From IMG/VR virus record IMGVR_UViG_3300025121_000021: DNA of 64,000 bases; one strand, 5' to 3'. The notes below the pieces were generated by a model. It did not search any database. It was not told the DNA's origin and saw only the letters and a program-made list of their open reading frames with translations. The DNA is from an uncultured virus (IMG/VR IMGVR_UViG_3300025121_000021). Its lineage: Duplodnaviria > Heunggongvirae > Uroviricota > Caudoviricetes. Of the stretch, positions 3,256-62,304 are shown in pieces. Position numbers and translations under genes: made by a program. Positions within the stretch are counted from its first letter, which is position 1. Every line of letters starts with the position of its first letter.

Positions 3256-3798
3256 ATGCTTAAGTTCATTTACTGGTTGTGGATGTTTTCTAGCTGGGTT
3301 ATGAAATTTTGGTATAATATCCGTTATGTTTTTAAAAAAAAGCAAGCACTCAAAGACCTGAAAGCTTGGGAAAAAACTTTTGCCGAGTGTGAATCTCTAG
3401 ATGATATTAGTAAACAGTTAAGTATCGCTCCCTTGCGATGGAAGTCAGATTATTTTGGTGGGACCTTAGATAATATATCTGAACCTTGGGTGACTCTTGC
3501 TGCTAAAGGTGGAGACTGCGATAGTCTTGCAAGACTATGGTCTCATCTCTTAGAATTCTGTCCTATCGTCACTGACGTTTATCAGTTTGCTATGGTTGAA
3601 GGAGTTCGCGGCCATGTTGTTGTCGTATTTAAAATGAGAGACAATCATAGATGGTTTGTAATAAGTAATTTCTTCCTTCTTGGATCTACATATGTTAAAT
3701 TCTCTACGATAGGAGATCGTTTTTATCGTTATTTTAGTCATGGATATCTTTACGACAACAATCTAAAACTAATACAAATAGTAAAACCAGGAGATTAA
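3256..3798 (+). CDS. Transglutaminase-like cysteine protease domain protein
   Basis: GGDCDSLA (catalytic Cys) and GHVVVV (His) motifs. Confidence 0.55.
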   Translation: MLKFIYWLWMFSSWVMKFWYNIRYVFKKKQALKDLKAWEKTFAECESLDDISKQLSIAPLRWKSDYFGGTLDNISEPWVTLAAKGGDCDSLARLWSHLLEFCPIVTDVYQFAMVEGVRGHVVVVFKMRDNHRWFVISNFFLLGSTYVKFSTIGDRFYRYFSHGYLYDNNLKLIQIVKPGD

Positions 3799-12206: not shown

Positions 12207-13508
12207 ATGAATATCTGTATTGTTGACACAAATGTCCTTCTTGCCGATCCTTATATTGTAAATAAATTAGATGATGATCTCATTGTCGTTCCTCTTGCTG
12301 TCATAATGGAAATAGACAAGAAGAAAAAAGAACAATCAGATATTGGAATTTCCGCTCGCGAAACTTCTCGGGTTTTAAATAAATTAATAAGTGCGCCTGA
12401 AGTTCTTAATGCCAAAGGCAAAAAAATCGAATTTAAAGACGCGCAGACTCTTTATCCTTGCGAATTAAATAGCAGACTTAATCCACTTTTTGCCGACGAT
12501 GCCATTGTCATGATTGCAGCAGATTATGCAACGAATAATTTAAAAGACACAGTTGTTGTCTTCTCTGAAGATATTGCAGTAAGACTTAGAGCCAGAGCTT
12601 ATGGAGTTAAGTTTAGAAGTCTAGATAAGTTTTCTATAAAGACTGAAGGTCTATATTCCGGCTGGAGAACTGTAACTGTTAAAACAGAAATCATTGACAG
12701 ACTTTATGATAAAAGGATTGTAAAGGTAAAAGAAAAAGTTTTCTTCCCTAATGAGTGTGTTTTATTAAAATCTGAAGATGATAAAAGTCAAGCCTTAGCT
12801 CGTTTTGTTGAGAGTCGGGGAGGGTTAGTTCCTGTTACGACAAAGAATAAAAAAGCCTATGGTCTTGTATCTAAAAATCTAGAGCAGAGTTTTGCTTTAG
12901 ATCTTTTATTTGACCCAGCAATTAAATTAGTAACTTTAACCGGAGAGAGTGGTACGGGTAAAACAATTCTTGCCTGTGCTGCTGCTCTTCAGCAAACACT
13001 CGAAGATCATGAATATAGAAAGGTTTTAATTAGCCGTCCTATATTCCCATTAGGAAAAGACATCGGTTTCCTCCCTGGTCCGGCTTCTGAAAAATTAGAC
13101 CCTTGGATGCAACCAATTTATGATAATATTGAACTACTTAACTCGTTTAATCAACCAAAGAAAAATCACAAAGGTCAATCTAAAGAGAGAATAGTAGAAG
13201 AGTTAATAGAGGTCGAACCTATTACATATATTAGAGGACGTTCTATTCCACAACAATTTTTTATTATAGATGAAGCACAAAATACAACACGACACGAAAT
13301 AAAAACAATTATCACTCGTGTAGGAGAAGGAACTAAAATAGTCCTCACTGGAGATATTAAACAAATAGATAACCCTCATGTAGATATGTTCTCTAATGGA
13401 CTGTCTTATGTGGCAGAGAAATTTAAGGGATATGCTATTGCTGGTCATCTTGCTTTAACAAAAGGAGAGAGATCAGATTTGGCGACTTTAGCTTCTAAAA
13501 TTTTATGA
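12207..13508 (+). CDS. phoH: PhoH-family ATPase with N-terminal PIN domain
   Basis: VDTNVL PIN motif, GESGTGKT, IGFLPG, YIRGRS, DEAQN and GDIKQID. Confidence 0.9.
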   Translation: MNICIVDTNVLLADPYIVNKLDDDLIVVPLAVIMEIDKKKKEQSDIGISARETSRVLNKLISAPEVLNAKGKKIEFKDAQTLYPCELNSRLNPLFADDAIVMIAADYATNNLKDTVVVFSEDIAVRLRARAYGVKFRSLDKFSIKTEGLYSGWRTVTVKTEIIDRLYDKRIVKVKEKVFFPNECVLLKSEDDKSQALARFVESRGGLVPVTTKNKKAYGLVSKNLEQSFALDLLFDPAIKLVTLTGESGTGKTILACAAALQQTLEDHEYRKVLISRPIFPLGKDIGFLPGPASEKLDPWMQPIYDNIELLNSFNQPKKNHKGQSKERIVEELIEVEPITYIRGRSIPQQFFIIDEAQNTTRHEIKTIITRVGEGTKIVLTGDIKQIDNPHVDMFSNGLSYVAEKFKGYAIAGHLALTKGERSDLATLASKIL

Positions 13509-13514
13509 GGTATA

Positions 13515-13851
13515 ATGAAAACAGTTACAAAAGAACAGTTTGTACAATTTTTGAATGAACTTTTAGCGCTAGACAAAGAAGCAATACAGAAATTATTTTT
13601 TTTATAGGGTACCATGCAATAAATCCATGGCTGGTCATCCAACAGTACAGTGTAGAAAGATGAGCGACGAGACCTATTCAATGGGTCTTCTAGGATTATT
13701 GAATGGATTATTTGATGGTCCTGATGAGCATCCTCATTGGGGAGCTTTTTATAGGAACGTAAATGTGGATGATAATGGTGACGAGATTGAACTTATTAGT
13801 TTTGGCGTTATAACTAATGAACTAATAAAAAGCTGGAAAGAACAAGAATAA
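13515..13851 (+). pseudogene. Hypothetical gene split by a +1 frameshift in a T8 run
   Basis: ATG at 13515 (GAGG RBS) stops just after the T8 run at 13596-13603. Removing one T joins it in frame to ORF 13627..13851 (..KLFFYRVPCNKSMAGHPTVQ..). Confidence 0.6.
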
Positions 13852-55446: not shown

Positions 55447-57471
55447 TTATTTTTTAGAGGCGCGGTTCACAAAAATAGTATTAACATATTTAATTAAAGC
55501 TTCTGCGCAAGATTCACAATATCCACGTTCTTGCAATCTTTTCCTGATAGCTTTTAAAACCTTCTCTCCATCTTTACCAGGCTTAGCTTTATCTAAGTGT
55601 TTGTCGAATGGGATACGTAACGTTTGCTTTGCTTTTGAGTATAAATATTTCTCAATTGCTTCACGTAAACGATCATGAGAATTCCACTTGAATTCCCCTC
55701 CTGCTTGTGTTACTTCCCAATGTTTACGAAATATTTCATGACGGAATTCACGTTTAGATGAAGAATTTACACCAATAGCAGATTCAATTGAATTCATCAA
55801 TTCATCATCCAATGGGATTTCATTCCCCATCTCATCTCTGGGTTTTTCTTCGGATAAGAAATTATTAATATTATCAATATAACGAGAGAATAATTCTTGA
55901 GCACGACTATCGATATCGGCAAGTAGTGCTCCTGCAACAGCCTTCTCGGCCATATCGTTATATTCTTCTAGAACAGTTCCAATATGACCTAGCCATTCTT
56001 TACGTGACTCTTCTTTGACTTCAGGATTCTCTTGTAAATACTTCTTAATCTTTGCAAGAATAGTTACTGGGTTAATACATGGGAATTCTGTATTGTCATT
56101 AATTTGATCAGCCATTGCACGATTAATACAATCTACGATCTTTCTGGGTCCTAGTCCCTCGAATCCTTCTCTGGTATGTTCAAGACGTAGAGGGCGCAAA
56201 TCTGATTTGTTTAAGCCGAATACGTCTTCTCCTGCATAGAAACGGATCTTCTGTTTAAGTCCAACAGCAGATCCTTTTGGTGGCTTTAGGCGAGTAAGCA
56301 TTGCGTAAAATGCTGCCACTTCTAAAGTATGTGGAGCAATATGAATTTTATCGCGATTTTGGTTTTGACGAAGAATCTTTTGATAAATCTTTTCTTCGTC
56401 CTTATAGCTTAAACAATAAGGCCAACCAATAGTCCATACGCGATCTTGTGTTGCTTCTTCTGTTAGATCTTCCATGAACTTACGGAATTCCGATTCGTTT
56501 GTATGCGAAATAATGAGTTCGTCTACGTCGATCATGGGGAGATTTTCAATTTTTAACTGTTTCTCTTGAGTTAAACTTAGTAAATCCATTCGCATATCTT
56601 TGGAAATCTTTAAAATTTCCATAAGTTCCATGATCCCACGATTTGCGTAATTAATTTCACCGGAATAATCATAACTAAACGGATCACTTAGACCATGTTG
56701 GCTCAATGTACTAATATTTTTTGTTCCTTTGAGGTCACTAGCTTTTTGAGACTTAGGATCTCCGGGCATAAAGTTACCGATACCTTGACGCTGACTAATA
56801 CTAATCAAAAATCGTTGTGATAAGAATTTCGAAATATCATCATTCAAGAACTTAGTTAGAACCTTTGCGCAATGTGGGCATAAATGGCCTTCGATTTTGA
56901 TACCTGTTGCTGTGAAAAAGTCTTCCCTAAGTTCATCGGGTAAGGCTCGTAATGGGTCTTCATTGATAGGACAATGGTTCTTCACGAGACCATACTTGTG
57001 ACTTTCTTCGTCTGTGAATGGATACTTGATCCGGTAAATAGCACCATCATCAGTATTGCTATATTCAGCTAGATTTCTTTTAATTTTGTCAACAACATCA
57101 CTCTTTCCGCTTCCTACTGGTCCCATGAATAGGAGTAGGCGGCGGCTTGCATCACTTTTATTTGCAGCAGATTTAAGATACTGCATTAGCATGCCAATAT
57201 TATCCTGAATTCCAAAGAATTGTTTTTCAAAGAAGTCATAAATTTCAATTTTCTTTCCCTTTTCCAGGGCATATTGATCTAGTTCGTATCGAATACCATG
57301 TCGATGAATCGAATTATAGACACGCCCAGCAGCATTAGCTGCAATACTAGGCTTATTTTTAACTAATTCGATATATTCAGATAAAGAGATAGTATGTAAT
57401 TCTACCTTGAGTTTGTCGTGCTTGGCCATTAATTGAGCAAGAAGATTCTCTTTGACCTCAGTGGTTGCCAT
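55447..57471 (-). CDS. prkA: PrkA/YeaG family AAA+ serine protein kinase
   Basis: FFGI, LLFMGPVGSGKS, CPINEDPL, LCPHC, ANRG.ME..E..K, HTNE.E, HIAPH, and GYCESCA at the C-terminus. ATG at 57471 after GGAGG. Confidence 0.9.
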   Translation of the reverse strand: MATTEVKENLLAQLMAKHDKLKVELHTISLSEYIELVKNKPSIAANAAGRVYNSIHRHGIRYELDQYALEKGKKIEIYDFFEKQFFGIQDNIGMLMQYLKSAANKSDASRRLLLFMGPVGSGKSDVVDKIKRNLAEYSNTDDGAIYRIKYPFTDEESHKYGLVKNHCPINEDPLRALPDELREDFFTATGIKIEGHLCPHCAKVLTKFLNDDISKFLSQRFLISISQRQGIGNFMPGDPKSQKASDLKGTKNISTLSQHGLSDPFSYDYSGEINYANRGIMELMEILKISKDMRMDLLSLTQEKQLKIENLPMIDVDELIISHTNESEFRKFMEDLTEEATQDRVWTIGWPYCLSYKDEEKIYQKILRQNQNRDKIHIAPHTLEVAAFYAMLTRLKPPKGSAVGLKQKIRFYAGEDVFGLNKSDLRPLRLEHTREGFEGLGPRKIVDCINRAMADQINDNTEFPCINPVTILAKIKKYLQENPEVKEESRKEWLGHIGTVLEEYNDMAEKAVAGALLADIDSRAQELFSRYIDNINNFLSEEKPRDEMGNEIPLDDELMNSIESAIGVNSSSKREFRHEIFRKHWEVTQAGGEFKWNSHDRLREAIEKYLYSKAKQTLRIPFDKHLDKAKPGKDGEKVLKAIRKRLQERGYCESCAEALIKYVNTIFVNRASKK

Positions 57472-58207
57472 TATTCCTCCTGAATTTATTAAGATTATTT
57501 TGGATATGATCAAGGTCTTCTTGATTAATTTGCTGAATATAATTAAGAATGCCTAAGGAATAAGATTCTTGATTAGAATTAACTAGCTTAAGGCTTAATT
57601 TTCTTTTAGTTCTACGAGATAAAGAAATGATATTGTTTTGAACTGTTATGCCTAAGACTCCAAATTTTTCAGTTTTAGGAATAATAGACTTAACTGGGCA
57701 TTTTAAATTGCCAATTGAATAGATATTTTTGAATAAACGAATAACATTTGGAATGTTATCTCTGCGGCATGAAATAATGATGTTGTCTACATAACGAGAC
57801 CATACAAAATCTTGATGAGTTTCGTATAATGATCTTTCTAAATATTGTATAAAACATTCGGCTAAAATTGGACTTGCAGGACTACCTTGCGGTAAGCTGT
57901 TTTGATAAAAACATATATCAAGCTCTTCATTTGTTAATAAATTCGGATATAGCCTAACAAAATTTTCTTTTATAATAGAGGGGAAAAACTTTTTAATATC
58001 TAATTCTATCCAATAATCATATTCAAATGGAAAATGATAATTAATAGTATTAAGAACAGATCTGAAACTAAAAATATTTTCTTTTATAGAAATAGAATTA
58101 TATATTCTTTTATGAATTTTTTTTAATTTCACTTTTGTCTCAGGATCAGGGATATTAATGTCTCTAAATTTATTATTAACTTTTCTAAGTTTTATACTAG
58201 TATACAT
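57458..58207 (-). CDS. Retron-like reverse transcriptase (249 aa, YVDN active-site variant)
   Basis: K..KFR.I..P, region-X-like NTINYH, LDIKKFFPSI, LPQGSPASP.LA, SRYVDNIIIS and region-Y-like VLGITV. Likely ATG is 58207; the track uses TTG 58243, which lies inside the RNA stem. Confidence 0.85.
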   Translation of the reverse strand: MYTSIKLRKVNNKFRDINIPDPETKVKLKKIHKRIYNSISIKENIFSFRSVLNTINYHFPFEYDYWIELDIKKFFPSIIKENFVRLYPNLLTNEELDICFYQNSLPQGSPASPILAECFIQYLERSLYETHQDFVWSRYVDNIIISCRRDNIPNVIRLFKNIYSIGNLKCPVKSIIPKTEKFGVLGITVQNNIISLSRRTKRKLSLKLVNSNQESYSLGILNYIQQINQEDLDHIQNNLNKFRRNNGNH

Positions 58208-58236
58208 ATTTATTACATTTTTTTTTAGGAAAAGAG

Positions 58237-58536
58237 ACACCAAGACTATAAGTAATCTAAATTGATATAGTTAACAACAATCTTTAATATTGGAATTGGT
58301 CCCTATAAAGGGACTCTCCCATAGCAAAGAGGTTATTAAGTATCGCCTTAGATTACTTATAGCTATCCTTGATTTTCATCTAGATACTTGGTGTATTTCA
58401 CTCGATTCAAATTATTTGAATCGAGAACTGGCCGAGTCCAGCTGCAGTCCAGTTCTAACTAACTTTATTTGAATGTAACCATTCAAATAAATTTAGTTTG
58501 TGAAATACATTTAAGATACTTATTTCTAAGTATCTA
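58237..58536 (-). ncRNA. Putative RT-associated structured ncRNA (retron msr/msd-like plus 5' multi-stem domain)
   Basis: Perfect 15-bp IR 58246-58260/58348-58362 and 8-bp IR 58237-58244/58387-58394. Hairpins at 58299-58314, 58401-58425 (11 bp), 58424-58456 (8 bp), 58464-58491 (12 bp) and 58514-58535 (9 bp). Closing 10-bp stem 58392-58401/58500-58509. This is the largest truly non-coding gap in the window. Confidence 0.75.
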
Positions 58537-59263
58537 ATGTGAAATATGTAAATTGACTATTGCTACTTAAACTAAATGTAATTTGTGTTGTTTTTAACAT
58601 TTTTGTGATAAATATTTCGCTTAATATAGCCAAAGCATGTAAAGCCGTCATCTGATTAATTAACATATTTTGTGGTGGACCATCTGCACATGAACGTTCA
58701 TGTGGTTTAGCATTATTTATTTCAGGATATAATTTCACAACATCATCTAAAATAACTTTTTGCTTATATGTTTCGTTATTAATTGGATTAGTAACAGCCA
58801 TTTGCCCTAAGTTACCTCCTAAGATAACTTGGCCTGTATCTAAATCATTGCCGCAATCCAAATAAAAATATTTGGCTTTCTTATAGCGATTTGCGCACAA
58901 AAGCCGAGCTTCGTCATTATCACAGCAACAAATTATAAGAGGGAGACAATCATAATAGTCATTCTTTATTGGTGTTTCTTTTGTTAAGAATTGAGGTTTA
59001 GCTATGATAGTTACTCCATAAGCGCGTGAGTATCTTTCTGCTAATACCTCAGCTTTATTTTTACCAATATCAGAAGCAATGAAGTTTTGTCTTAGAATAT
59101 TTTTGTCGCTAACAACATCTCCGTCCATAATATGAATATTAACTGGGCAAGATTTAAGAAATTTAATTAACCAAGGAATTAGCCAACTTCCTGTACCTCC
59201 TGCTCCAATAATTTCTATATGTCCAATGAAGTTTTGAGGTATGTTAATTAGTCCTATCTTCAT
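58526..59263 (-). CDS. E1-like ThiF-family activating enzyme (PRTRC-type)
   Basis: IGAGGTGS, DGD.V...N..RQNF...DIG.NKA, CCDN..AR, LDCGN...GQV, and SCAD with a candidate catalytic Cys. Confidence 0.9.
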   Translation of the reverse strand: MKIGLINIPQNFIGHIEIIGAGGTGSWLIPWLIKFLKSCPVNIHIMDGDVVSDKNILRQNFIASDIGKNKAEVLAERYSRAYGVTIIAKPQFLTKETPIKNDYYDCLPLIICCCDNDEARLLCANRYKKAKYFYLDCGNDLDTGQVILGGNLGQMAVTNPINNETYKQKVILDDVVKLYPEINNAKPHERSCADGPPQNMLINQMTALHALAILSEIFITKMLKTTQITFSLSSNSQFTYFTLDT

Positions 59264-60294
59264 GGTTTGGTCGTCCTAAAGAAATCTCGACGGGTTTTTT
59301 TAGCACCGGGACAAAAGCGTTCAAAATATTCTTCTTCGTCATCTGTCAAATCTTTGACTGGTGTTGGATGAAGACCTATTGCTCGGGGTTCTATAATGGC
59401 CTTTTCAACCACTTTATAAGGCTTATCCATTGCTATTCTTGATAATGCATCTTCTGGATATGTGATACATGATAAATCATTTTCTTTTAGAATCTCTTTT
59501 AGTGTTAATTGTTCGGTGTCGAATAAGTCTTTTAAGGAAATTTTCCCTTCTTCTTTGCCCATCATACACCATCTACCAGTAAAGGTAGGATCGGTAAAGA
59601 TGTTTCCGATAACACCATAAAATCTAGTTTCTGCATTATCTTTGTCATCTGTCTCACTATGGAAAGCTCCCATAGAATTATGAGAATGAATTTGCATAAC
59701 CTGTAAGTTTTTAGACTCATGAATAGGTGATAAATATGTAATTTTGCTATCTTTCTTCTGATCGTCTTCGTCGAAATCAAAGAATTTAATAGCAGCACCA
59801 CTTATTACTTGAATAGGAATATCAAGGAAATATTTTTTAGCTTCTGTATCCCACAAAATACGTGTCATAACTTCTACATTTTGCTCGGCAATGGCACATA
59901 CGTCAGTCGCTAAGATAAAACTTTGAAGTAATAACTCAATTGGAATTTTAGGAAGTAGGTAAACAAATCCATTCTCTTTAATAGAATTTTCGGTATATAG
60001 TAACGGTTCATCATACCCATGTGCCTTCTTCATAAAGAGAGCAAATTTTTGATATTCAACGCGATAAATACCGTTCTCTTGTATAGAATAAGCCACTGGA
60101 TGTTTAAGCGCAATAAAATCTTGAGCTGATCCTCCTAATACTTTAGGAATATATTTTGCCGCTAATTTATTTGTGGAAATAGTAGCAGGAGAAATAAGCT
60201 TACTTAAACTTTCTCTTTTTTTCTGAATCAAAGATTTAACTTTGTCATTATTTTCGCGTAGTTCATCAGATAAAAAGTAGAATTTCTTATCCAT
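59260..60294 (-). CDS. JAB/MPN+ metalloprotease (PRTRC protein A-like deubiquitinase)
   Basis: LPKIP, E.M..I.WD, P.Q..S and IHSHNSMGAFHSETDDKD (HxH-x7-S-x2-D), then YGVIG. Confidence 0.85.
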   Translation of the reverse strand: MDKKFYFLSDELRENNDKVKSLIQKKRESLSKLISPATISTNKLAAKYIPKVLGGSAQDFIALKHPVAYSIQENGIYRVEYQKFALFMKKAHGYDEPLLYTENSIKENGFVYLLPKIPIELLLQSFILATDVCAIAEQNVEVMTRILWDTEAKKYFLDIPIQVISGAAIKFFDFDEDDQKKDSKITYLSPIHESKNLQVMQIHSHNSMGAFHSETDDKDNAETRFYGVIGNIFTDPTFTGRWCMMGKEEGKISLKDLFDTEQLTLKEILKENDLSCITYPEDALSRIAMDKPYKVVEKAIIEPRAIGLHPTPVKDLTDDEEEYFERFCPGAKKTRRDFFRTTKP

Positions 60295-60977
60295 TAGATA
60301 ACTCCATCTATGTTATTGTTACGCAACCATACACGAAGATTTCCAATGCTATTTAAAGCATTATTTGGGAAAATTTTTCCACATAATGTTTGAGCTAATT
60401 CTTTTTGACCGTAATTTTGGTATTCGGCTATCACTGGTTTTTGATATAAATCATCATTAAATGTAGAAGATAGAAAATTATTAATAATTCCGATAGCACT
60501 TTCAATTCCATTTAAAACATGCTCAGTTGATCCCCAGCAAATTTTTCCATCATTATATGTATTACCATATGGCCAATGGTAGATTTCGGTACTTTGAGTC
60601 AGGGCATAATGTTTTAAACATATACAATAAGTATATGTGCTTGAACCAGCTTTAACAAATACAAATAAGGTGATAGGGATAGGAACATTATCAATTGCCT
60701 CAACAGCTGCACCTGTTCTTTTGTTATGGTAATTATAAGTTAATAAACTTGCTGGGTATGTAAATAAAAGAATTTCTTTATTGAGATTTCTGGTGTAATA
60801 AGAAATACCAAAACTATGAAAAGGGCCTAATTTAACTTCTTGTTTATCAACGAAGAAATTAGCAATTAAATGATCTGGAATTGTTTTATATATAATTTCA
60901 TTAGAGGCAGAAATAAATTTTGCATTAACTTCGCTTGAATTTTCTTCTAAAGTTAATATTAATTTTGAGTTATTCAT
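60294..60977 (-). CDS. Prokaryotic E2-like conjugating enzyme (Prok-E2_D / PRTRC protein B-like)
   Basis: P.P..LF, YHWPYGNTYNDGKICWG (catalytic Cys) and F..S.FN.D. Confidence 0.8.
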   Translation of the reverse strand: MNNSKLILTLEENSSEVNAKFISASNEIIYKTIPDHLIANFFVDKQEVKLGPFHSFGISYYTRNLNKEILLFTYPASLLTYNYHNKRTGAAVEAIDNVPIPITLFVFVKAGSSTYTYCICLKHYALTQSTEIYHWPYGNTYNDGKICWGSTEHVLNGIESAIGIINNFLSSTFNDDLYQKPVIAEYQNYGQKELAQTLCGKIFPNNALNSIGNLRVWLRNNNIDGVI

Positions 60978-60986
60978 TCTTTCCTC

Positions 60987-61766
60987 TTAAAGCCCATAAG
61001 TGATTACGTTGTTAATGTCTGTTACGAGAACGTTTGGAGGGGCAAATAAATTGCCGTCTATATAAAGAACTGAATTTTTATTTATGGCTTCTAATAAAAT
61101 TTTTAGATAAAGCGGTTGAGTTGTATCAATTTTGTTAATGTTATAACAAGTTCTATCAATCTCTAAAATATGAGTTAGTTTATTTGGTTGCCATACGTTA
61201 AACTCATAAACAATATTTTTAAATGTTGCTTTGATCTTTTTTGCTGTACTTCGTTGCAAATTATTACTACAAGATATTAAATAATTAAATACTTGTTCTG
61301 TTACGTCTATAGAAAGAGAATTCAACAATTGATTATTTATAATTTTATAACCTAAAGCTATATTAGGATTTTTTGTTGTTAATTTATTTTTAATATTCAT
61401 CAGAACATTAAAATCTTGTAGTATATTAATATTTTGATTTTCGTTTATTAAACAATAATCATAAATATTAAATAATTGTTCTGTAGTTGCACAATCAAAT
61501 AGGGCATGTGAACTTATCATAAAATTTGTAGACGTTAAATGAATTTGATTAACAGTAGGATTCGTTTTAAGGGCTTCTAAAATAGTTTCAGTCTTTTTAA
61601 GTAAATTGAGAAGTCCTCGTTTATTGCAATTTTCCATTCCTGGAATCGTTATTCGCATTCTTTCAATTCTTTTTTTATCTTCTGGAGTTAATGAAGTTAA
61701 AAATTTAGCAAAATTTTCTAAGATATTGTAAAACCCAATTACATCTTCTATCTCTATGGTATTCAT
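60987..61766 (-). CDS. Hypothetical protein in Ubl operon
   Basis: 259-aa Asn-rich ORF. Confidence 0.6.
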   Translation of the reverse strand: MNTIEIEDVIGFYNILENFAKFLTSLTPEDKKRIERMRITIPGMENCNKRGLLNLLKKTETILEALKTNPTVNQIHLTSTNFMISSHALFDCATTEQLFNIYDYCLINENQNINILQDFNVLMNIKNKLTTKNPNIALGYKIINNQLLNSLSIDVTEQVFNYLISCSNNLQRSTAKKIKATFKNIVYEFNVWQPNKLTHILEIDRTCYNINKIDTTQPLYLKILLEAINKNSVLYIDGNLFAPPNVLVTDINNVITYGL

Positions 61767-62032
61767 ACGAAGTCTCCATTAGTAGAAACAGAAGAAATTT
61801 TCTTGTAATTAGTAGCGACTAAGGCCCAATTAATTTTTTTAGCTTTTTGTTCTAGAAGATAAGCTTTTGCTTTATCAATTAATGGTTGATACAGTTTTAA
61901 ATATTTTAAAAAGTTATCAGCTTCTGTTACTCCTTTAGTAGTTCCTATTATGGACTTTAGGAGTAAGAACTCATATTCTTGAAGATCACTTTTTTTGTAT
62001 TTTTCAATTGTTTCTTGAAGATTTTTAAACAT
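61763..62032 (-). CDS. Hypothetical protein in Ubl operon
   Basis: 89-aa ORF with ATGA coupling. Confidence 0.55.
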   Translation of the reverse strand: MFKNLQETIEKYKKSDLQEYEFLLLKSIIGTTKGVTEADNFLKYLKLYQPLIDKAKAYLLEQKAKKINWALVATNYKKISSVSTNGDFV

Positions 62033-62054
62033 GTATCTTTTTTTTAGATAGGTT

Positions 62055-62094
62055 GAAAAAGGAAAGGGCTAGGAGAGACTTCCCCTAGCCCTTT
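62055..62094 (-). terminator. Intrinsic terminator-like hairpin downstream of the Ubl gene
   Basis: 11-bp stem AAAGGGCTAGG/CCTAGCCCTTT (62063-62073/62084-62094), followed on the - strand by CCTTTTT. Confidence 0.7.
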
Positions 62095-62121
62095 TTGGTT
62101 GGTCAAACGACTAATTTTTTT

Positions 62122-62304
62122 TTAGCCTAACTCTCCACGCTTTTGCTTAAAATCAAATACGGTGTTTCCATCCTCAGTATGAGTGGAAACTTCCACGTTG
62201 CGGGCGCCTTGGCCGTTTACCGCAACAATAATTGCCCTTGCATCTTCAAGGGTAGCAGTGGAAGCGAGTTCATACGTTTGACCATTGTAACGTGCACTAA
62301 CCAT
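62122..62304 (-). CDS. Prokaryotic ubiquitin-like protein (Prok_Ub / PRTRC protein C-like)
   Basis: 60 aa: YNG near the N-terminus, 'T.E..R' helix, C-terminal F....G.xG (FDFKQKRGELG). Strong AAGGAGG RBS, upstream of E2/JAB/E1. Confidence 0.7.
   Translation of the reverse strand: MVSARYNGQTYELASTATLEDARAIIVAVNGQGARNVEVSTHTEDGNTVFDFKQKRGELG

Follow-up and report, generated by a model that had tools for sequence, protein, structure and literature searches.

Retrons are bacterial anti-phage systems that combine a reverse transcriptase (RT), an RNA and a toxic effector, and the bacterial systems that conjugate ubiquitin-like proteins (Ubl), namely Cap2/Cap3 of CBASS (antiphage signalling based on cyclic oligonucleotides) and Bil, are also host defences. 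What, then, is the role of a retron-type RT encoded at the end of a Ubl conjugation operon in the genome of a phage? This question is raised by the window analysed here, the whole stretch of 64,000 nucleotides (nt) from the uncultured virus IMGVR_UViG_3300025121_000021. Its minus strand carries, in this order, the genes for a Ubl, two open reading frames (ORFs), an E2, a JAB isopeptidase and an E1, followed by a non-coding stretch, the RT gene and prkA. An earlier note on this DNA had read this order from the sequence, and it has been reproduced with family matches. The large phage genome that the note had supposed is also borne out: the source record is a virus of 190,284 bases (CheckV completeness estimate, 84%) with the replication genes of large tailed phages, including those for a primase-helicase, a DNA polymerase, a ribonucleotide reductase, UvsX and PhoH. 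The note had further proposed that either the Ubl set or PrkA was the partner of the RT, and what has emerged is a real finding as far as the Ubl set is concerned and an incidental one for PrkA. The answer developed below is that the RT and a partner RNA may constitute a phage accessory module that works with a Ubl conjugation operon related to PRTRC (ParB-related, ThiF-related cassette), a proposal that we consider to have equal chances of being right or wrong. Underlying it are the genes present, the catalytic residues that E1, E2 and JAB retain, the retron-type fold of the RT, an RNA that folds exceptionally well, and a recurrent, phage-specific linkage between RT and E1.

The RT (58243-57458, minus strand; RVT_1, E 1.3e-14) consists of 261 aa if translated from a TTG at 58243, or of 249 aa from an ATG at 58207, and the additional residues read from the upstream TTG resemble the N-termini of related RTs. 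Its best PADLOC models are those of the retron RTs RT_II-A and RT_III-A (E 5e-28), with the listed models of the defence-associated RT (DRT) type scoring more weakly (RT_UG17, E 6e-15; Drt3a, E 1.5e-11). Retron models are matched by all 18 aligned relatives, and no single retron type stands out. Seven of the eight sequence matches in the PDB are named retron RTs, the exception being 8bgj, deposited as 'RNA-directed DNA polymerase'. The AlphaFold2 (AF2) model of the protein (predicted local distance difference test, pLDDT, 90.4) retrieves only retron RTs at Foldseek ranks 1-15 (TMq 0.65-0.75), with group II, diversity-generating retroelement (DGR), DRT and Abi enzymes below them. The cut-off of the NCBIfam retron St85 family RT is not reached (97.1 bits, E 1.1e-27, versus 235). 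With retron models, PDB sequence matches and Foldseek ranks in agreement, the protein can be classed as retron-type by sequence and modelled fold, as the earlier note had it. A DGR was also considered and rejected, given that no copy of a template or variable repeat is found in the genome and that a DGR RT ranks 31st by fold.

Within this type, the phage enzyme is an outlier. Among 1.84 billion representative proteins, 40 match it at E <=1e-10, the best of them other than itself being 35% identical, and the phage GenBank collection yields only three weak matches with 25-28% identity. Residues 12-208 align to residues 60-267 of the Ec86 RT, the phage protein being ~60 aa shorter, counting both ends together. 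The motifs specific to retron RTs are known as NAxxH and VTG; in this alignment, NNATPH pairs with NTINYH, where only the H is kept, and KVTG pairs with GVLG, while G186 is invariant in 18/18 aligned RTs. The protein sits on a long branch of the RT tree with a weakly supported placement. That tree is a quick LG+G4 reconstruction with a weak backbone, used solely to show the scatter of the E1-linked RTs, and its E1 labels are under-called, as one clade (that of L006) was tagged 'noE1' before a rescan with hidden Markov models (HMMs). The catalytic aspartates D70 (motif A) and D141 (the first Asp of motif C) are invariant in the 18 aligned RTs, and the sole polymorphism of the gene across other samples is synonymous; for these reasons, the RT gene looks maintained. 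The C-termini of the RTs are neither conserved nor Gly-ended, which indicates that the RT is not itself a Ubl-like substrate. Prediction of a complex between RT and E1 (alignments A5 and A6) returned a score of 0.00, which weighs neither way.

The other half of the locus is a Ubl conjugation set that looks complete, with enzymes that are apparently active judging from their residues. The first gene (62304-62122, minus strand) encodes a 60-aa protein ending in RGELG. It aligns with a 62-column Ubl family present in 62 E1 loci, nearly all of whose members end in G-x-K-G and in which the C-terminal G is invariant (alignment A8). The HMM of this phage family matches the 60-aa protein weakly (E 1.6e-4 in a set of 24 sequences). 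Its AF2 model (pLDDT 86) shows the order beta-beta-alpha-beta-beta, and the top Foldseek matches of the model in the PDB are ubiquitin chains, although weak ones (E 0.03-0.2, none at <=0.001). According to this alignment and this model, the protein is best described as a Ubl. The E2 (60977-60294) is of the Prok-E2_D type (PF14460, 34.9 bits; cut-off 25) and holds the catalytic C147, which is conserved together with N139 and P136 in 29-31 of 31 phage E2s. The JAB/JAMM isopeptidase (60294-59260, 344 aa; Prok-JAB 23.3 bits, cut-off 25; PRTRC_A, E 7e-11) has all its JAMM residues intact (E141, H203-x-H205, S213 and D216, conserved in 38-40 of 40). The ThiF-type adenylating enzyme E1 (59263-58526, 245 aa; ThiF, E 1.6e-16; PRTRC_ThiF, E 4e-33) keeps the catalytic C192 as well as every column that is invariant in 74/74 E1s. 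The two ORFs that separate Ubl and E2 (62032-61763, 89 aa, and 61766-60987, 259 aa) belong to no family, Pfam, NCBIfam, PADLOC and PHROGs being blank for both. The larger one fills the slot before E2 where relatives have an ORF of 196-316 aa, an analogy of position; jackhmmer found no relatives of it among the fetched loci, and the protein atlas gave nothing usable. At the position equivalent to that of the 89-aa ORF, the metagenomic locus L129 has an ORF of 96 aa.

A separate observation concerns the fate of such Ubl proteins. In Bacillus phage vB_BceM_WH1, gp211 (2778-3677 of L120), a protein of ~300 aa in which the phage Ubl family is repeated (HMM E 5e-58), is annotated as a virion structural protein. 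On this sequence likeness, the Ubl of these operons may end up in particles.

The association between the RT and the Ubl operon has been followed across several sets of loci. The RT-anchored viral set comprises 36 loci from a profile scan of a viral collection, with E1 called by HMM within 10 kb; the E1-anchored viral set comprises 80 loci kept out of 288 viral stretches that encode E1 relatives, in a scan seeded with four E1s (an alignment of seven was too divergent). The bacterial control consists of 80 loci kept out of 345 E1 relatives, mostly from Clostridia and PRTRC-like, and the metagenome set consists of 80 kept RT-anchored loci. ThiF/E1 lies within 10 kb in 13 of the 36 RT-anchored viral loci, one of which is the phage's own copy. 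In the opposite direction, an RT lies within 10 kb of E1 in 17/80 E1-anchored viral loci, and downstream of it in 14 of the 52 E1 clusters (90% identity) whose downstream flank is 8 kb or longer. Every RT near E1 in this set is downstream and co-oriented, and the 66 E1-anchored loci whose upstream flank reaches 8 kb or more have none upstream. In the bacterial loci, no RT was found near E1 (0/80). The neighbourhood check that the note had called for, scoring whether the Ubl set is conserved beside related RTs, therefore comes out in favour of the Ubl side, with ThiF or the full set beside the RT in those 13 viral loci and no RT beside the bacterial E1s.

These loci are not copies of a single layout. 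The E1-linked RTs occupy several separate places of the tree and at least seven gene arrangements. The 13 viral loci include a clade of nine in which ThiF immediately precedes the RT, and in L003 the RT is likewise found near a Ubl/E2/JAB/E1 set. The nearest RT relative by word search (28% identity) is encoded on a 207-kb viral contig, where the RT is followed by a 292-aa ORF, the Ubl gene, two ORFs, E2_D, JAB, a zinc-finger ORF that looks inserted, and ThiF. Two of the 80 metagenome loci hold the Ubl set: L125, the best-scoring of all, and L129, the order of which matches that of the window exactly (Ubl of 60 aa, ORF, ORF, E2, JAB, E1, RT). The stop codon of E1 overlaps the start codon of the RT as ATGA in L080 and as TAATG in L129, and the genomes G000, G001 and G002 (190-207 kb) have one RVT_1 match each, located at the Ubl operon. 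Taken together, the RT-E1 link is recurrent, phage-specific and optional for the Ubl system, with translational coupling in some of the loci.

Some related arrangements are worth recording in their own right. The clade of L006 (8855-11050) and L014 (4653-6990), to which L007, L008, L010-L012, L015 and L018 also belong, is found on viral contigs of 40-50 kb; here ThiF directly precedes an RT of 344-367 aa, no E2 or JAB is detectable, and in L006 and L014, the two loci that were folded, a retron-like RNA with a long hairpin and with paired ends that precede a G is located not upstream but downstream of the RT. A second recurrent set of partners in viral contigs is a bpMoxR AAA+ ATPase plus a VWA protein directly upstream of a compact RT, with a gap of ~300-500 nt before the RT (L005, 6717-10801; L009, 6591-10798; L016, 5909-10807). 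HNH or zinc-finger ORFs are encoded inside the operon, where they separate either E1 from RT or JAB from E1, in L085 (11336-11983), L074 (10789-11412) and L003 (14687-15460), and they look like homing-endonuclease insertions.

The third element of the proposed module is the DNA between E1 and RT, 282 nt of which are ORF-free (58525-58244, minus strand). Folding of the 316-nt segment 58545-58230 gives -118.6 kcal/mol, compared to -57.6 +/- 4.9 for 100 shuffles (z -12.5), and 0/100 shuffles fold as well, which substantiates the earlier description of ~300 nt of densely paired non-coding DNA. In the predicted minimum free energy structure, hairpin 1 (58540-58507, 9 + 5 pairs) does enclose the E1 stop codon (58528-58526), again as described. 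It is followed by domain 2 (58506-58395), a junction closed by AUUUCAC/GUGAAAU with three hairpins (58498-58457, 58455-58425 and 58424-58402), and by domain 3 (58394-58237), the outer 8-bp helix of which contains the TTG/GTG start of the RT. The inner helix of domain 3, 17 bp that pair 58363-58347 with 58261-58245 and are followed by G58346 according to the energy prediction, resembles an a1/a2 helix and closes an irregular hairpin of 81 nt. The three-hairpin domain falls outside these a1/a2-like arms.

Structured stretches are also encoded beside the RTs of some relatives, as revealed by sliding-window fold scans with a GC-regressed score. An ORF-free stretch upstream of the RT folds well in L125 (z -8.9), another between E1 and RT does so in L085 (z -4.1), and in L006 and L014 a folding stretch with paired ends and then G is located downstream of the RT (z -6.6 and -7.2). 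The one in L125 (2963-4365) extends over 1.4 kb, is highly structured and precedes the closest metagenomic relative of the RT; it has sub-threshold matches to the Y RNA-like YrlA at 3263-3368 (E 2e-6) and 3588-3654 (E 1e-4). The stretch of the window is present in 14 DNA metagenome runs, all as contigs, and no RNA run is listed for it. Four of these runs were compared and found to be near-clonal: the 7 kb contain five substitutions, all of them outside the RNA stretch, and the metagenome samples thus carry no covariation signal.

The genes that follow the RT have to be considered in two blocks. In several relatives, they encode putative nucleic acid-binding proteins: a SpoVG-like gene comes directly after the RT in L085 and is also found after it in L074, a zinc ribbon and then a Whirly protein follow in L080, and a Whirly gene appears a few genes on in L129, L140 and, weakly, L003. 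The window holds similar genes further downstream. One is SpoVG-like (52041-51670, 123 aa; phmmer E 1.3e-4 to the SpoVG of L085; Pfam SpoVG 17.3 bits, sub-cut-off), and the other is Whirly-like, with a single-strand DNA-binding fold (50691-50179, 170 aa; Pfam 20.5 bits, cut-off 23; phmmer E 1e-3 to the Whirly protein of L140, 65.9 bits, itself encoded downstream of an RT). Between them and the RT lies prkA (57513/57471-55447), encoding an AAA+/Ser kinase (AAA_PrkA, E 3e-94; PHROG 22605, E 2e-120), and then two small Lcl_C-like ORFs, a YeaH-like DUF444 gene and spoVR (55442-52025, Pfam), the SpoVG-like gene being the first after spoVR. The simplest reading of this order is that a 5.5-kb insertion of PrkA, two Lcl_C-like ORFs, DUF444 and SpoVR has parted the RT from the genes that normally come after it.

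This block shows features of its own. The PrkA-DUF444-SpoVR set (57471-52025, minus strand) is like YeaG/YeaH/YcgB, here in a phage. PrkA homologues are encoded in 17 phage records, 15 of which are named phages, 11 of those infecting Thermus; the remaining bearers include Ralstonia RsoM2USA and very large uncultured phages. Four small paralogous ORFs of 99-122 aa on the minus strand (55442-55143, 55090-54722, 51053-50700 and 49860-49507) are scattered through and after the block; three of them start with MFK[EV]INGxTIDF, and an Lcl_C (DUF1566-like) match was obtained in all three that were scanned. Two of these Lcl_C-like paralogues may flank the insertion points of the block. In L085, ARAGORN predicts a gene like that of transfer-messenger RNA (13403-13808), ~600 nt downstream of the RT and SpoVG genes.

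Regarding expression, every gene of the window from roughly 14.5 kb up to 64 kb lies on the minus strand, and tight gene overlaps are commonplace along this run of ~50 kb. The ATG of prkA at 57471 is preceded by GGAGG and overlaps the RT stop codon (57460-57458) by 14 nt, exactly as stated in the note. The claim derived from these overlaps, that no evident room is left for separate transcription units, holds only in part: the overlaps are correct, but a terminator-like hairpin of 14 pairs (7 G-C) with a T-run, found as a consensus scan match only, lies directly after Ubl (62094-62063, minus strand). This hairpin may act as an attenuator that sets the Ubl-to-enzyme ratio, yielding more Ubl than enzymes. 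Promoter-like sites are no commoner than chance (36 found versus 40.9 expected).

A mechanism can be postulated in which the RT and its RNA, built into the 3' end of the Ubl operon, would be expressed with it, so that the operon transcript would carry the ~300-nt RNA. The RT would bind this RNA and then either reverse-transcribe a portion of it, giving short single-stranded DNA, or remain attached to it in a ribonucleoprotein. Handling of the single-stranded product would fall to the SpoVG-like and Whirly-like proteins, and the Ubl machinery would mark the complex of RT and nucleic acid or be switched by it. The logic would be like that of type II CBASS, where E1-E2 and JAB control a nucleotidyltransferase, here with a separate Ubl, and the likely purpose would be phage-host or phage-phage conflict. 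Synthesis of complementary DNA (cDNA), use of the RNA as partner of the RT and contact with the Ubl enzymes are steps that we infer one by one. The strong form of this scheme, in which reverse transcription and Ubl conjugation are mechanistically coupled in a family of phage systems, with the RT and RNA as a sensor, scaffold or substrate that directs the Ubl cascade or is controlled by it and with dedicated Whirly/SpoVG-like single-strand binders, is put forward tentatively, the balance leaning somewhat against it.

Which neighbours does the RT serve, if any? For the kinase operon, it can be argued that the prkA start codon, with its own GGAGG, lies within the end of the RT gene, and that the compact RTs beside bpMoxR AAA+ ATPase and VWA genes in L005, L009 and L016 offer a loose parallel, since DUF444 has a sub-threshold match to VWA_2 (17.7 bits versus 27). 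However, among loci L001-L204, PrkA, DUF444 and SpoVR are found only in copies of this phage, and tight overlaps are the rule along the whole one-strand run. PrkA also recurs in the 17 phage records mentioned above, a count of PrkA alone in records where no RT was searched for. Because the block is confined to the copies of this phage and splits the RT from the SpoVG-like and Whirly-like genes that follow it elsewhere, the link to PrkA is taken to be incidental; the block looks like a separate, lineage-specific insertion that is merely co-transcribed, and a RT/RNA module at the service of the PrkA-DUF444-SpoVR operon, one of the options in the earlier note, is very improbable. A stronger competitor is that a stand-alone, retron-like phage cassette has landed by the Ubl operon in a shared accessory region, with no joint function. 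Stand-alone (msr-msd)-RT cassettes are mentioned by Mestre et al. 2020 (PMC7736814), and RTs of the same superfamily adjoin other partners, as in the three bpMoxR/VWA loci. Several observations count against a joint function of RT and Ubl enzymes in the same way. About three quarters of the phage E1 operons have no RT nearby (63/80 loci), and none was found in the whole genomes of the cultured jumbo phages Bacillus WH1 and Acinetobacter ME3, which shows that the Ubl system can do without the RT. In the clade of L013, the largest of those linked to an RT, five opposite-strand genes intervene between E1 and RT, an arrangement that co-location in an island fits as well as shared function, and related loci are kin, so that locus counts overstate the number of independent events. 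Nevertheless, mere co-location has to accommodate a linkage seen in seven or more arrangements and in several clades of RTs, always on the same strand and, within the E1-anchored set, always on the downstream side, with overlapping E1 stop and RT start codons in two loci and with no RT in any of the 80 bacterial E1 loci. We judge it somewhat unlikely.

The remaining doubts concern the RNA and the chemistry of the RT rather than its neighbours. The RNA might instead act in cis on the operon, as an attenuator or a site of processing behind E1, as a lock that keeps the RT start codon from being translated, or as DNA palindromes bound by a regulator, with the RT using another RNA or none. Hairpin 1 spans the E1 stop codon, the RT start is buried in the 8-bp helix, and the hairpins form palindromes that are nearly perfect. 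On the plus strand the fold is hardly less stable (-107 kcal/mol, 11.6 worse than the minus strand), and a role at the DNA level or in antisense is conceivable. The retron-like view of the RNA is weakened further in that a single irregular hairpin lies between the a1/a2-like arms of the predicted fold, with no separate msr and msd stem-loops. Searches with nhmmer and blastn found no RNA homologue among 199 other loci, only chance words of 15-18 nt; Rfam gave nothing for the structured stretch apart from a lone row for IS128 on the other strand (E 0.24); and the genome contains no second copy of the 316 nt, only their own palindromes. Its position is not constant either, as there is no gap between E1 and RT in L129 and L080, and in the nine-locus L013 clade a conserved ORF, and not an RNA, precedes the RT. 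On the other side, ~300 nt with a z of -12.5 far exceed what a terminator or operator needs, no T-run comes after any of the hairpins, the G-U pairs favour the minus (coding) strand, accounting for those 11.6 kcal/mol, and large structured ORF-free stretches adjoin the RTs of other relatives; an exclusively cis-acting RNA is thus regarded as unlikely. Lastly, the RT might be a non-polymerising RNA-binding scaffold, or the maker of an unusual product like those of DRT2 and DRT9 instead of multicopy single-stranded DNA (msDNA). Its motif C reads YVDN and not YADD, for which reason its polymerase activity is not certain. This Asn in place of the second catalytic Asp recurs, as YxDN, in six other distinct relatives among 247 rows (P0038, P0067, P0136, P0190, L024 and L026), and the RT of L080 has YGDN. 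The DRT9 and DRT2 RT-ncRNA complexes are among the fold matches, at lower ranks (19-26). The RNA region could also yield stop-free tandem units of up to 195 nt, and a stop-free stretch of 65 codons runs antisense through it (58290-58472, plus strand), probably as a by-product of the palindromes, its length being within chance for 282 AT-rich, palindromic nt by an estimate that was not computed. Against this possibility, D70 and D141 are invariant, YADD is kept in most relatives, including the E1-linked L003, L125, L129 and L065, and in sequence and fold alike the nearest enzymes are clearly retron RTs. A scaffold or an odd product therefore appears distinctly unlikely.

Returning to the proposed RT-Ubl module, its components can be compared with those of characterised systems. 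Retrons such as Ec86/Eco1, Ec83, Ec67/Eco2, Ec78/Eco7 and Eco8 (types I-XIII of Mestre et al. 2020, PMC7736814) resemble it in the profile, sequence and fold of the RT, in the structured RNA upstream with a long end-pairing helix and then G, and in the organisation of RT, RNA and partners in one operon. In contrast to them, the system of the window is phage-encoded, has a shorter RT with YVDN, lacks separate msr/msd stem-loops and has Ubl, E2, JAB and E1 as partners. No retron effector was matched by PADLOC or Pfam in the 11-15 flanking proteins scanned, and no ThiF, ubiquitin, JAB, PrkA or kinase is mentioned in the main text of the paper that classifies retrons (Mestre et al. 2020, PMC7736814).

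The closest relatives of the Ubl operon are the PRTRC cassettes (TIGR03735-03737), which share with it the order E2-JAB-E1 plus a small Ubl. The nearest NCBIfam models are PRTRC_ThiF for E1 (114.7 bits versus a curated cut-off of 144.75), PRTRC_A for JAB (42 versus 101.8) and PRTRC_B for E2 (22.8 versus 131.45), and genes of Acinetobacter phage ME3 are annotated as PRTRC protein A and ThiF. The differences are that all three matches are sub-cut-off here and that ParB_N is missing, with no match at E <=0.01 in the 190-kb record (84% complete), whereas the control was positive in 11/14 genomes. Moreover, the phage-type Ubl family is present in only 4/80 of the PRTRC-like bacterial loci, and an RT accompanies about a quarter of the phage operons versus none of the 80 bacterial ones. 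The function of PRTRC is uncharacterised, and no mechanism paper appears among the titles listed as PRTRC literature matches.

Other parallels come from defence systems. In type II CBASS, the E1-E2 fusion Cap2 and the JAB protein Cap3 control a cGAS/DncV-like nucleotidyltransferase (CD-NTase) by conjugation. The likeness lies in an operon that joins E1, E2 and JAB with a nucleotide-polymerising enzyme, and among the 11 locus proteins scanned with PADLOC, E1 matches only CBASS E1-E2 models (E 4e-8). However, the phage operon has separate E1 and E2, a free-standing Ubl and an RT as partner, and the same 11 proteins matched no CD-NTase or CBASS effector model. The Bil (ISG15-like) defence consists of four parts, Ubl, E2, JAB and E1, and conjugates its Ubl during phage infection. 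This four-part composition is shared with the window; the differences are that the set is here phage-encoded and accompanied by an RT, and that CBASS E1-E2 families were the only ones matched in that scan. Finally, DRT2 and DRT9 combine a small stand-alone RT with a structured RNA of ~300 nt directly upstream, as in the window. DRT2 makes a rolling-circle cDNA that encodes a repeat protein and DRT9 a homopolymer DNA, and we know of no Ubl partners for either of them. In contrast to the retron RTs (TMq up to 0.75), all of which they rank below, they match the fold at TMq 0.53-0.66.

Away from this locus, a 312-aa ORF of the window (20894-19956, minus strand) matches PHROG 1211, '2-aminooxy adenylosuccinate synthetase' (E 3e-54). 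This PurZ/PurA-like enzyme might point to modified adenine in the DNA of the phage.

As for novelty, full-text searches, consulted at the level of listings and abstracts, returned no description of a pairing between a retron-type RT and Ubl conjugation, in line with the earlier remark that no retron type with E1/E2/JAB/Ubl partners has been described. Since the PrkA neighbourhood is incidental, a false lead is spared. What the locus does present is a joint operon of retron-type and Ubl machineries that is encoded by the virus, an arrangement encountered time and again in large uncultured phages. If the two work jointly, retron-type RTs would gain a new kind of partner, and phages would be shown to deploy nucleic acids made by an RT. 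It would also give functional access, for the first time, to the PRTRC-like Ubl operons, which are uncharacterised and frequent in phages (288 viral matches). A compact RT of ~250 aa with a defined RNA may also be of interest for retron-based DNA-writing tools. If reverse transcription and Ubl conjugation are indeed coupled, the phage operon would represent a new class of RT-based conflict systems, encoded by viruses rather than by their hosts.

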